Position numbers and translations under genes: made by a program. DNA of 64,000 nucleotides from Eledone cirrhosa (lineage: Eukaryota). The stretch is from NCBI GenBank assembly GCA_964016885.1, contig OZ024742.1, positions 194,742,001 to 194,806,000 of the forward strand, given 5' to 3'. Of the stretch, positions 43,370 to 63,800 are shown piece after piece (position 1 is the first letter of the stretch; every line of letters begins with the position of its first letter). Under the pieces are notes generated by a model, which did not search any database, was not told the origin of the DNA, and saw only the letters and a list, made by a program, of their open reading frames with translations.

Positions 43370-43780
43370 ATGGTGGCTGCCAACTCGTTTTCGAGTACGG
43401 CCACTACTTTATATCCATGTAGGAGAACCCCTACCGATGCGCTGAACGAATGTGACTTTAGTCCAGCCAGCGACTTGAAAACTCTGGTACAAAGACTACA
43501 CTTGTGACCATTATTGACACATAGTGCAGGGCCCATGGTACCATGTGATGACAAGTGCAGAGAGATCTCCAGATATAAAGCAATGCCTGTGCTGTGAAGC
43601 TTTTATAGTGAGCAAAGGCACTGCACAAAGCCAGTCCCACTCTCTTAACCAAGATGATATTTACCAAAAAGAAGAACAGGTCAACATCATTGGATACCAT
43701 CAGGGTTGCAGGTGTTATATCAGAGTTTTCCTTCTCCTAGAATTCTGCCTTGACAAAGGCTAAGGGGTCATCTCTCCCGG
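43370..43780 (-). mobile_element. RTE-derived non-autonomous element, 5'-truncated copy
   Basis: Near-identical to 50494-50906; flanked by TA/CATA repeats. Confidence 0.85.
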
Positions 43781-44715
43781 TATATACATGTATATATACA
43801 TACACGTATATATACATATATATATACATACATGTATATATACATATATATACATACATACATATATACATACATACATACATACATATACATACATACA
43901 CATATATATACATACATACACACATACATACATACATACATATATACATACATACATATATACATATACATACATACATATACATACATATATACATATA
44001 CATACATATATATACATACATATACATATACATACATACACATATACATACATATACACATACATACATATACACATACATACATATACACATACATACA
44101 TATATATATACATACATATACACATACATACATACACATACATACATACATATACATACATACATACATACATACACATACATACACATACATATATACA
44201 TATACATACACATACATACATACATACATATACATACATACATATACATACACATATACATACATACATACATACATATACATACATATATACACATACA
44301 TACATATATACATATACATACATATACACATACATACATATATACATATACATACATATACACATACATACATACATACATACATACATATACATACATA
44401 CATACATATACATACATATACATACATACACACATATACATACATATACATACATACATACACATACATACACATACATACATACACATACATACATACA
44501 TATATACACATATACATACATACATATACATACATACACATATATATATACACATACATACACATACATACATACATACATATACACATACATACATACA
44601 TATATACATATACATACACACATATATATACACACATACATACATATACATACATACACATACACAGATACATATATATATGTATACATACATACATATA
44701 TATACATACATACAT
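43781..44715. repeat. Degenerate (CATA)n/(CA,TA) microsatellite, ~930 bp
   Basis: Direct inspection. Confidence 0.95.
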
Positions 44716-44932
44716 ATGGTGGCTGCCAACTCGTTTTCGAGTACGGCCACTACTTTATATCCATGTAGGAGAACCCCTACCGATGCGCTGAACGAGTGTG
44801 ACTTTTTAGTCCAGCCAGCGACTTGAAAACTCTGGTACAAACACTACACTTGTGACAATTACTGACACATAGTGCTGGGCCCATGGTACCATGTGAGGAC
44901 AAGTGCAGAGAGATCTCCAGATATAAAGCAAT
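44716..44932 (-). mobile_element. RTE-derived non-autonomous element, short 3' copy
   Basis: Encodes [25 protein letters not shown] (RTE-type terminal C2H2-like motif) followed by ...ggcagccaccat-(TATG)n. Confidence 0.85.
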
Positions 44933-45095
44933 ATATATATATATATATATATATATATATATACATACATACATACATACATATATATATATATATATAT
45001 ATATATATATATATATATATATATATATATGTATGTATGTATATATATATATATATATATATATATATATATATATATATATATATACATATATA

Positions 45096-48000
45096 TACAA
45101 ATAGTTAAAACAATGAAATTAAACAAAAAACGGTTAATTCATAGTAAAACTCATTATTTTACGATCGTTTCTGTGGGGTAGTTCCCCGTGTGTCCATTCT
45201 ATTATTGATGTAAAATATATTACAAAATATCATAGTAAGAAAATATACATACGTCTTCACTACCCGCCGTCCTCAGAAATAATGGGTTTTGTTTATTGAA
45301 GAATACAAAAAAACACATATGTGAATAAGTAACGTTTTATAAACTAGGTTGAAGTTGACCAATAGTAAGAATAGGAAGGGGCAATATAGATCCTTAAGTT
45401 GGTAGTAGTAGATGAATAAATAAGCAGTCAGGGGATGAGGTATCAAATGACTTTTAAGAAACGAAAGGAAGAATTTAGACATATTGTATATAAAAGTGTT
45501 GATGGTCAAAGAAGATTACAGTTGGAGGAAAAAGGAGTGCAGAAACGAGTGTGTTACAACAAGTAGAATAGTATAGAACAATCCTAAATATTTGTTATTT
45601 CTTTGTTGAGGGGAATAAATCGTTCTAAAAAAATATTGTTCTAAAAGAATAGAATAAGTAGAGGAATATAAATGGAACCAAAGGGAAGTAAAATTTAGAT
45701 GAAAAATAGATAAAATACTATATAGGTAAGAGAATCCTAAAGCTTGCGTAAGTATTTTATTGCACACACACATATATATATATACATATATATATATATA
45801 TATATATATATATATATATACACACACATACATACACGTACATACACACACACATATTATCTACACACACACACATATACATACACACATGTATATATAG
45901 AAGCACACACTTATGTATACACATACATATATATATATACATATACACCCACACACCCACACACACATTTTCTCCTATATCATTTTCTATGTTTGTTTAG
46001 TTGTATTTATAATATTTGAATGTCCTTCTAATTTTATGGTTACATGCTATAATTAATTCTTGTCTTTTATTTAATAGAGTGTCCTTCGATTTAGTAATTT
46101 AAAAAATTTCTTGGGAACATAGTACACATCCCTTCTATTGCCCTGATAAGAAAAGGCTCTCTTGAGAATCTTCCAAGTTAGGTTATAATTAATATTCTTC
46201 TTTTTACAATCATTAACAGCTTCTGCTAAAGAAGTGGTCTTAGCTAATTTTGTGTTTCGGAAACTGTGGGCGTGTGCATAAAATCTCGATTTAAATGGAT
46301 TAGAAGTGGATCCAATATAAGATTGATTAGTGGTGATTATACATTTATATACTATACTATTAATAAAGCAATTTCCATTTAAGGGGCAATTATCTTTTAC
46401 TCTACAATTACATGTACTATCCATATTCCCAATAATAGTGCTAGTATTTGTATTTACCTTTTTATATGGGAGAGAAGGGTTTACGGTTTGGTGATCACGG
46501 CCCGAAGGGTTGTTAGTTGGTGAAATTATACTGGATATAACGTTTATAGAATCATGGTTGTTTTGGAAGTTATTGGTTAGATTGGGTATGTAATTCTTAG
46601 TCCCTATTAAGGATGAGGAAGATGGTAGTTGGTTGTAGGCTGATGTATTGTGTTGGTGAGGTGAGTGGATGTAACTGGGGGATAGGTAATAATATTCTGG
46701 TTATGGCTGTAGTATTATTATAGTTAGTTTGTGTGTAGTGTGCTAGGGGTATACATGGAGATTTTTTACATTATAGATGTTACATGCACTTATTTTTTGT
46801 TGTATATTGCTCAATGTGGAGTAAGAAAATGTTACTGTATATCTGTTTAAGATTTGATGGTATTTATTTATGGTTAGGTGGGAAATTGTTATCAAAAATT
46901 GTAAAAAATGTTTAGGGATTTGGCCCATAGTTTGCAAGTTAAATGGAGCGTTATACCATGTTACGTTTCTTTTATGGTTTCTTAATAAAGAAAGCATTAT
47001 ATTGGGTATGTATAGAAGTATGAGGGTAGATTTTGTTATCAGATGATACTATAATATTGTTATTGTTATTAAGGGTGTGAACTAATTGTCTAGTAGAATT
47101 TTGAATTGTATTAGTTTTTAATTTATTGCTTTTTGTTTGATTTATAGAGGATATTGTGAGTTTCATTAATGGAGCCTAATTGATAGGACCTGGAATGTTG
47201 GTACTATTCTTGTTATTTACAGTAGTTCGGATATGTTTCTCTGATTTTTTGGATTGTAAGGATGCAGTTTGGTTAGGTTGAGGGATCAATGAAATAGGTA
47301 ATATATCATTAGGTTTGTTGTCAGAATTAAGATATAAGATGTTATTATTAACTGCTTTTTAAGATTAGTGGAGTTAGGTGTTTTCGTATGGTGAGTAGTA
47401 ATATTATTAGGTAGGTTATAGAAATATTCAGAAGCGTTAGGTTTGATGATTTTTAGAGAGTTTGTGTCATTCGTGTTAATGCGGGTATTAGGAGTTATGG
47501 TAGGATCCAGGTTTTTCGGTGCTTCATTGGTGGCACTAACTCTTTGGTGTTTTTTATGGTGTTTGTTAATTATGCTTGATTGTATGCTGGAGGTCATCAT
47601 CGTATTAGGCATGTAAAATATTTTAACCTTGTAGCCACTTCTAGGTAAAGCCTCATTAAAATAAGGTTCATTTTTATAGAATATTTCTTCATTAGATGAT
47701 AATTTAGATAATCTGAGTGAGATATTGTACACTAGTTTTTTAGTATGGAACTATATAGTATTTTATCTCTTTTTCATCTAAATTTTACTTCCCTTTGGTT
47801 CCATTTATATTCCTCTACTTATTCTATTTTTTTAGAACAATATTTTTTTTTAGAACAATTTATTCCCCTCAACAAAGAAATAACAAATATTTAGGATTGT
47901 TCTATATTATTCTACTTGTTGTAACACACTCGTTTCTGCACCCCTTTTCCTCCAACTGTAATCTTCTTTGACCATCAACACTTTTATATACAATATGTCT

Positions 48001-62275: not shown

Positions 62276-62292
62276 CATACATACATACATAC

Positions 62293-62787
62293 ATGATGAT
62301 GGGTGCAACTCGATTTCGGTTGATACTTAAGCATCACAGACGTGGCTTTTTAGTCTTGCTAGTGACTTGCCTATGACCAACAATACCATGCAACGCAATA
62401 ATGTCCTATCAAGCGATGACTGGGCTTGAATTTTATTGAAGTGAGGAAAGGCTTTGCACGGAGCCAATCCTACTCTCTTAACATCGAATTCATTTGCCCC
62501 AAACGAAATGGTCTACATCATAGGATGCAAACGCAGTCGCAGGTTTTATATCAGAGTTACTTTCTAGAGACATTCCTTAATGAAGACTAGGAATAACTCG
62601 CTCCTCAAAAAATCAAAACAACTTTATTGGATGGCCGTGGACTCTCCTTAGTTCCTCCGCCTTTTGACGGGTTTTGTTTTTCATCCAGCAGGATGTGCAA
62701 AATCACCCTCCTCACCAAGCAAGCTTTGTGGGGTTACCGGTTTAGACGCTGACGAACCGACCATGCACAGGTTGTACTGGATTACAT
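62293..62787 (-). mobile_element. Strongly diverged copy of the bipartite RTE-derived element
   Basis: gagccaatcctactctcttaac, caggatgtgcaaaatcaccctcctcaccaag, cgaccatgcacaggttgtactgg. Confidence 0.7.
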
Positions 62788-62837
62788 ACCTACCTGCCTA
62801 CACTCATACATACATGCATACATACATACATACATAG

Positions 62838-63520
62838 AAACGATAGCCCCGATAATAAACACATTAAAAGCTACAGCACAGTGGAAGACATAGATATACA
62901 TAATGTGAAAGAGTGCTGGTGGAATGTTCCAGTAAAAACCCCAATAAAATGCAGGCATAACAGACGAGATTTTATGATATGGGACGGGGAAAAGAAGGCA
63001 TGCACAGTAGTGGAAGTTAGCTGCCCAGCAGATGCCAATATAATATCAAAGATTAGCGAAAAGGAGGATATGTATGCAGAACTAATGAGAAATTTGCAGA
63101 TACTCCACCCTGATTATACCTTCAGATTTATGCCTGTGATTATTGGGGCACTGGGATATGTTAGTAACTGCCTCAAAATCTTGAGAAGCTTCACAGGAAC
63201 AGAAAGAACACAACTAGCTAGGAAATTACAAGTACAATTCATTAATGGAACAGTAAAAATATGTAAAACGTGCTAAACATTTTGCATCTAATAACTGCAT
63301 ATACACATGTACAGATACTAAGCATACACACATGCACACGTACAACTCAGAACATACACATCCGCACATACAATAACATCCATATCTACACATGCAGACA
63401 TGCATACATATCTACCTAGTTGATGTTGTGTAAATTCCAATGAGAGAGTCTTGTGTCTATGTTAGAAACCGACTCTCTCTCTATTGGTAAAACTTTGTGA
63501 AATTATAAAACCAGAAGAAC
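62838..63520 (+). mobile_element. 3' fragment of a second, divergent R4-clade family in (CATA)n
   Basis: WWNVPVKT...HNRRDFMIWD...TVVEVSCP...KEDMY...MRNLQI..P.YTF.F.P.IIGALGY...GTVKICKT; different 3'UTR ending accagaagaa|catacata. Confidence 0.85.
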
Positions 63521-63800
63521 ATACATACATACATACATAAATACACACACACATACATACATACACACACACATACATACATACATACACACACATACAT
63601 ACATACATACACACACACATACATATATACAGACAGACAGACATACAGACAGACATATTACATACATACTTACATACATGTATACATACATACTTACATA
63701 CACATGCATACATGCATACATACATACATGCATGCATACATACATACATACAGACAGACAGACAGACCCACAGGCCGACATGCATCCATACAGGCACGCC

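Follow-up and report, generated by a model that had tools for sequence, protein, structure and literature searches.

Retroelements of the RTE and Dong-R4 clades are active in octopuses (PMC13282606, PMC8967140, PMC9115989), and five recently active Dong-R4 families with 1,129 insertions have been described in Octopus vulgaris (PMC13282606). Microsatellites are known targets of elements with a restriction-like endonuclease (RLE; PMC4640811), transposons are listed among known targets in the same paper, and the 5' junction of Dong in Bombyx mori follows TAA repeats (PMC3774820). For RTE elements, a role of the 3' repeats in guiding cleavage or priming has been suggested (PMC6007223), as has an origin of microsatellite families from these repeats (PMC2887409). 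Bipartite RTE derivatives are also known, such as RTESINE1/2, WALLSI3, Bov-A and the Bov-A2 dimer (PMC5786205). Here, we describe a nest of retroelements in a 64,000-nucleotide stretch of contig OZ024742.1 from Eledone cirrhosa, hereafter referred to as the window. The nest is built mainly of two families, R4a, a long R4/Dong-like element, and RS, a 612-bp non-coding putative RTE derivative, which face in opposite directions within (CATA)n tracts. We propose, with a probability of about 0.68, that each family is primed independently from its own strand of a shared CATA/TATG repeat, which would produce opposite-facing nests, and that an RS dimer additionally spreads the targets.

Results

In the 3.0 Gb assembly, the 3' end of R4a continues into TACATAC at 1,440 sites genome-wide, against 0 for a reversed control, and 205 further 3' ends enter related purine-pyrimidine variants. 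Sampled loci, which carry L numbers, were counted without the window's own loci, the duplicates L245-L248 and, on the 5' side only, L233. CATA is found on the same strand within 12 nt past the R4a 3' end in 64 of 64 of these loci, and the polarity of the 5' flank, where visible, is CATA in 49 of 51. Copies that are 5'-truncated also have CATA at their 5' side; because of this, CATA is taken to be the target and not a leader of R4a. The (CATA)n targeting in fixed orientation, which had been proposed in an earlier, sequence-only reading of this DNA, is therefore well founded. Another repeat, with the start CAGTCAACG...ATCAGTC, lies to the right of CATA tracts at L024, L225 and L228 and may represent a third CATA-associated family.

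RS is also located in microsatellites. Of 50 copies, 43 have a microsatellite as their 5' flank; its polarity is TATG in 34 of them, neutral (TA) in 8 and CATA in 1. The 5' and 3' flanks agree in repeat type (rho 0.53, p 2e-4), and at L043 and L053 locus-specific repeat variants are present on both sides of the element. Genome-wide, 7,807 RS 3' ends enter GTATGTATG, 6,328 enter pure TA and 218 have an offset phase. Tail types vary with the site, and therefore the tail follows the local target and is not a fixed (TATG)n. RS gave 33 matches in a random sample of 1.19 Mb (119 stretches), and it re-inserts into the same tracts, as had been suggested. Truncations and 5' inversions, seen at L035, L037, L059 and L145, are as in target-primed insertion. 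The middle of RS, compared by eye, matches a conserved RTE 5'-UTR (untranslated region) domain (OegopSINE / RTE-3_BF) displayed in the supplement of PMC5786205, which agrees with the RTE origin previously assigned to the short element. The 3' part of RS has a terminal stem-loop (z -3.2) and a coding remnant of the form CxxC...H...H, for which a protein search with 51 residues returned no homolog. We take this remnant to be linked to RTE C-termini. RS can be described as a probable bipartite, non-autonomous RTE derivative.

The sequence-only reading had gone further and proposed that the (TATG)n tail of RS is the landing pad of R4a. On the side of the tract away from R4a, RS forms the edge for 20 of 64 R4a 3' ends and 15 of 50 R4a 5' ends; random tracts of at least 4 CATA units have RS at 8/47 and 11/47 of their edges (p 0.12 and 0.50 in the comparison with R4a). 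Among the 50 R4a copies with both flanks visible, 22 have RS on neither side and 1 has an inverted RS piece. In this edge classification, L024 still resembles a missed old RS. The landing-pad proposal is thus not borne out, given a tail that follows the local target, an equal frequency of R4a at RS heads and these 22 copies without RS. Because R4a is as frequent at the heads of RS as at its tails, the opposite polarity is best explained by a shared target. Overall, R4a is enriched beside RS about two- to three-fold, and the enrichment is not tail-specific. The gap between R4a and the RS tail is not fixed and differs from pair to pair by whole units of the repeat. R4a is younger than the neighbouring RS in 26 of 32 pairs, a sample biased toward young R4a, which is the age order expected from the earlier reading.

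A direct link between the two families is provided by a dimer of RS. The window copies at 50494 and 57102 constitute one RS dimer, with downstream monomer B and upstream monomer A, and the dimer was found at five other loci. At four of these, L032, L034, L037 and L039, a second RS lies upstream of the RS copy closest to 50494, with 376-638 bases of compound CATA linker between the two; the sixth locus is L304. The upstream RS allele at position 576 was present in 5 of 91 copies, those at L032, L034, L037, L039 and 57102 in the window, and the best matches to the A copy of the window include the other dimer loci. Compared with the B copies of four other dimer loci, the copy at 50494 is 0.65-0.98% divergent. 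Overall, A copies are 0.2-1.8% apart and B copies 0-1%, compared with 2.9-4.1% between A and B. Rare linker variants, used as landmarks, keep the same order across the dimer loci. The outer flanks and truncation points differ among these loci and L037 has a 5' inversion, a pattern that suggests retrotransposition of a single long transcript. The A copy of the window is shorter than that of L032, so the window dimer is probably a daughter copy rather than the source. The dimer is rare, since a pattern of B plus leader has 13 exact genome matches, against thousands of RS copies. Six of the 13 have the A monomer (the window, L032, L034, L037, L039 and L304), L301 has a different second copy, and no A was found in the DNA examined at L042, L057, L300, L302, L303 and L305 (900 bp for L300-L305).

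The dimer linkers carry 63-118 CATA units. The linkers at L034 and L037 hold 98 and 63 CATA units, respectively, whereas the outer flanks on either side of these two dimers are TA repeats without CATA runs; the dimer thus delivered CATA to two sites that had probably lacked it. In the window, R4a insertions at 51226 and 52713 split the linker into three pieces, and the window dimer is the one direct case of RS supplying the target of R4a. The idea that one element seeds landing pads for the other is consequently borne out for a co-transposed linker, a route that the sequence-only reading did not propose, and is not supported for the RS tail.

The single open reading frame (ORF) of R4a encodes a non-LTR (long terminal repeat) reverse transcriptase (RT; Pfam RVT_1, E 1e-24), and the solved chains nearest to the protein are R2 proteins. 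It has a CCHC knuckle at residue 980 and a PD-x14-E-x15-K endonuclease motif, which was identified by eye and was missed by a stricter pattern search. Pfam detected no apurinic/apyrimidinic endonuclease (APE) family in the protein and no family in residues 1-119, for which Atlas gave only a Myb-like lead below 0.9. Members of the R4/Dong clade are not known to have N-terminal zinc fingers or a protease. Among the 120 homologs listed (of 212), the closest named relative belongs to Argonauta hians (65% identity over 60% of the query), and the same 120 contain no named R4, Dong or Rex6 reference. R4a is likely R4/Dong-like, an assignment drawn from its domain features and target.

R4a is a young and abundant family with many intact copies. 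When its last 356 bases are compared with the genome, each of the best 40 matches is 100% identical, and 23 of 39 full-length copies, chosen by their 5' end, keep an ORF of at least 1,160 codons. Contigs from three other organisms cover 30 of 30 bins of R4a, and in the most diverged of them the 3' end also enters CATACAT. Near-identical R4a sequence is present in several sequence sets (X1, X5, X7 and X8), with very high depth in X7; this similarity across organisms would reflect either close relatives or transfer. Short pieces of R4a (inverted 3' end, first 11-15 bases or internal segments) are located just upstream of 5' junctions at 52581-52712 and at L211, L228, L243 and L022, which suggests aborted template jumps; the inverted fragment at 52590-52679 is likely a by-product of template switching. 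An Rfam search of 50400-53300 detected no ribozyme, only sub-threshold microsatellite look-alikes. A loose hepatitis delta virus (HDV) ribozyme descriptor gave six matches from one start at the R4a 5' end, with 4 of 30 shuffles matching too, and no match in RS.

The organization of the window is given in Table 1. Elements were located by BLAST against copies from the window itself, and age was measured as divergence from the commonest letter of aligned copies. All twelve elements named in the sequence-only reading were recovered, and the nest is real and recurs genome-wide. Five elements had been read as one R4-like group on the plus strand; all are present, but the one at 62838 belongs to a second R4-like family, R4b, with 48% amino-acid identity to R4a over 132 residues. 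The seven RS copies on the minus strand, described as about 610 bp, are likewise present, although only 50494 and two old copies are near full length and the other four are 5'-truncated (217-413 bp). Strict polarity holds for the named elements, but not for the R4a fragment at 52590-52679 (minus strand) or for old RS-like fragments on the plus strand at 42097-42289, outside the 43370..63780 interval. The elements were said to be separated almost only by (CATA)n, which is correct for 50437-63780 except for about 740 unrelated bases (57698-58435) that split an old R4a-family copy, and incorrect for 45097-50436, which is 5.3 kb of other, unrelated DNA. The two R4-like 3' ends placed about 20 bp from older RS tails (59221 and 62275) were located, with gaps of 59219 to 59242 and 62277 to 62293.

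Divergence ranges from 0.4% to 11% in R4a and from 0.9% to 2.1% in young RS, and two older RS subfamilies are present besides the young one. The nest is age-layered and is not the product of collapse or tandem duplication, because these divergences span 0.4-11%, truncation points differ and the arrangement recurs on many contigs.

Table 1 Features of the nest and of a dispersed repeat in the window.
Feature	Coordinates	Strand	Remarks
RS, young copy, 5'-truncated, 412 bp	43370..43781	-	1.7% from commonest letter
CATA/TA compound microsatellite	43782..44715	+	
RS, young copy, 5'-truncated, 217 bp	44716..44932	-	
RS, full length, 612 bp, downstream monomer B of dimer	50494..51105	-	
Dimer linker, piece 1	51106..51225	+	Start and first landmark position common to L034, L042 and L304 linkers
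R4a, 5'-truncated (element positions 3169-4023), within linker	51226..52078	+	BLAST; 0.6% divergence
Dimer linker, middle piece	52079..52581	+	Landmarks at offsets 133, 183, 296; ~163 bp internal repeat
R4a 3'-end fragment, inverted, 90 bp	52590..52679	-	100% identical to 56593-56682
R4a, full length	52713..56735	+	5' start common to 30 loci; 0.4% divergence
R4a ORF, 1,174 codons stop to stop, ATG 53143	53128..56652	+	RT, CCHC, endonuclease motif
Dimer linker, last piece	56736..57101	+	(TA)nC terminus, as in other dimer loci
RS, 5'-truncated, upstream monomer A of dimer	57102..57419	-	Dimer-A allele at RS position 576
Old R4a-family copy, two pieces (57540-57697, 58436-59219)	57540..59219	+	BLAST; 11% divergence
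RS, older subfamily copy	59242..59860	-	Tail to tail with old R4a
RS, young copy, 5'-truncated	59923..60333	-	Pure (CATA)n on both sides
R4a, 5'-truncated (2157-4023)	60411..62277	+	BLAST; 1.9% divergence
RS, oldest subfamily copy	62293..62790	-	Tail to tail with R4a
R4b, 5'-truncated, longer 3' UTR	62838..63519	+	CATA at 3' end too
CATA compound microsatellite	63520..63780	+	
~190 bp SINE (short interspersed element)-sized repeat	1532-1730, 2827-3043, 13078-13381, 17029-17370, 34809-34999, 41490-41681		

Other features were found in the window. Segment 6093-6545 (plus strand) is an exon of a rhodopsin-family G-protein-coupled receptor (7tm_1, E 1e-20). In 45096-48386, inverted repeats of 630 bp, which are 96% identical, flank decayed minus-strand frames that have no Pfam match and that we presume to be Penelope-type with a GIY-YIG remnant; a remnant resembling this element is also found at 40727-41176. 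The fragments at 9130-9570, 28673-29020 and 35301-35975 (minus strand) have an 'ETSG...LFQRVSLAVLRGN'-type C-terminus, which is presumably the endonuclease end of CRE-like elements, and the two tested have no Pfam support. The SINE-sized repeat has about ten copies in the window, often adjoining (TA)n. Elsewhere in the genome, a young family labelled CR1-like by eye has many intact frames of about 957 codons (L280-L292, L295, L296 and L299).

Discussion

In target-primed reverse transcription, the primer is the strand complementary to the RNA of the element. The end of R4a, ...AAAACA, continues into TACATAC; the TATG strand would then serve as primer for its cDNA, probably once the endonuclease of the element has cut the target. 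For RS, whose end ...CCACCAT continues into GTAT or ATAT, the primer would be the CATA (or TA) strand, with an RTE enzyme as the likely agent. Because each end continues in a different strand of the repeat, the opposite polarity would arise without contact between R4a and RS. Repeat left on either side of each insertion would keep the tract a target, in which both families collect. The RS-linker-RS dimer spread as one unit to no fewer than six loci, in some cases into TA-only sites, and two R4a elements inserted into the linker of the window. The positions, orientations, counts and dimer linkage are observed, whereas the nicked strands, the priming, the mobilising enzyme and the order of events are inferred.

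Several results weigh against independent use of a shared repeat. Random tracts of at least 3 units have RS at 16/119 and 17/119 of their edges, and against these the excess at R4a is significant (p 0.006 and 0.03); an RS neighbour on any side is seen in 27 of the 50 R4a copies with both flanks visible. Genome-wide, a young RS tail lies within 30 nt of 78 of 1,440 R4a ends (5.4%), compared with 1.6-1.9% per random site (bootstrap upper 2.9-3.7%) and a per-tract ceiling of 4% (2/50, 5/123), nulls that are thin, with 2 to 15 events each. The tail-to-tail enrichment expected from the sequence-only reading is therefore partly present, but the head side is equal. Regional clustering, a preference for long pure tracts or insertion in both orders could produce the excess. 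In full-length R4a (L210-L244), the pure CATA run has a median of 12 units on the 5' side versus 5 on the 3' side (p 4e-4), while truncated copies show no such difference (p 0.86). R4a itself may add repeat; the longer 5' runs may come from off-centre cutting or from repeat added in second-strand synthesis. Each tract was presumably present before insertion, and no pre-insertion alleles were seen. For the dimer, R4a is found in the linker at 1 of 6 loci, a locus that was chosen for R4a, and whole-linker alignment scores fail to separate the linkers from unrelated compound tracts and were not used as support. Finally, among 50 examined of 150 genome matches to PF03372, which looked like CR1- and Tx1-type elements, there was no autonomous RTE with RS-like ends.

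A further reading is a genome-wide two-clade loop, in which RS would be the main maker and carrier of (CATA)n, by way of its tails, expansion at its junctions and dimer linkers that travel with it, and an active R4a would exploit the other strand and lengthen the tracts at its own 5' junction. We regard this loop as a tentative and rather doubtful alternative; if it is true, both families build each other's target space.

It is unlikely that RS makes most long CATA tracts, by tail slippage and expansion at both junctions, with R4a depending on it for targets, which would be a wider form of the sequence-only proposal. RS touches 17-23% of random tracts of at least 4 CATA units per side, compared with 9 of 678 CATA-free TA tracts, and at least 3 TATG units lie near 17 of 31 random RS copies. 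The tail-to-tail excess and the dimer linker, a direct case, point the same way, and PMC2887409 reports RTE elements as sources of microsatellites. Against it, the many RS ends in pure TA are at odds with such an origin, the right edge is free of any element in 35 of 47 random tracts and the left edge in 30 of 47, and TATG is also present at the 5' junction of 5'-truncated RS copies, one of which, at L151, has just one unit at its tail.

We consider it improbable that R4a recognises the RS sequence or its tail junction, in the manner of a transposon-targeting element. The exact tail-to-tail pairs and the younger age of R4a in most pairs would fit such recognition, but the gap varies by whole repeat units, head-side neighbours are equally frequent and 44 of 64 R4a 3' tracts have no RS at the edge. 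That the array arose by local segmental duplication or through faulty assembly is hardly credible: errors are common in low-complexity tracts and the linker contains an internal repeat, but ages, subfamilies and truncation points differ among copies and the arrangement is repeated at dispersed loci, so that the tandem duplication or collapse named earlier as a possible refutation was not seen.

Under the shared-repeat reading, two clades of retroelements can occupy one repeat, each on its own strand, and build ordered nests, which bears on the origin of compound microsatellites in such genomes. The (CATA)n target and the intact R4a copies make the specificity of a microsatellite-targeting endonuclease directly testable, and with the dimer, an instance of one element bringing in the target of another can be dated. 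A literature search, whose scope did not extend to Repbase or to Kojima and Fujiwara 2004, which may hold the target, returned no description of a CATA target or of the R4a-RS pairing.

Compared with known systems, R4a resembles Dong/R4 in its single frame, RT, CCHC knuckle, apparent C-terminal RLE and microsatellite insertion, and differs from Dong in its tetranucleotide (CATA)n target. Tx1L, which inserts in Tx1D, is an example of a transposon-targeting non-LTR element. As in that pair, one element here repeatedly adjoins another; unlike transposon-targeting elements, R4a has no fixed site in RS, and the microsatellite is the link. For the Dong-R4 families of octopus, the accessible portion of PMC13282606 gives no target site or nesting. 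RS differs from other bipartite RTE derivatives in that nearly all of its insertions lie within TA/TATG microsatellites and have a fixed polarity; its dimer differs from that of Bov-A2 in that the linker consists of 376-638 bp of captured microsatellite, the target of another element. In contrast with the systems in the accessible parts of PMC6007223 and PMC2887409, a second element here uses the repeats from the other strand.

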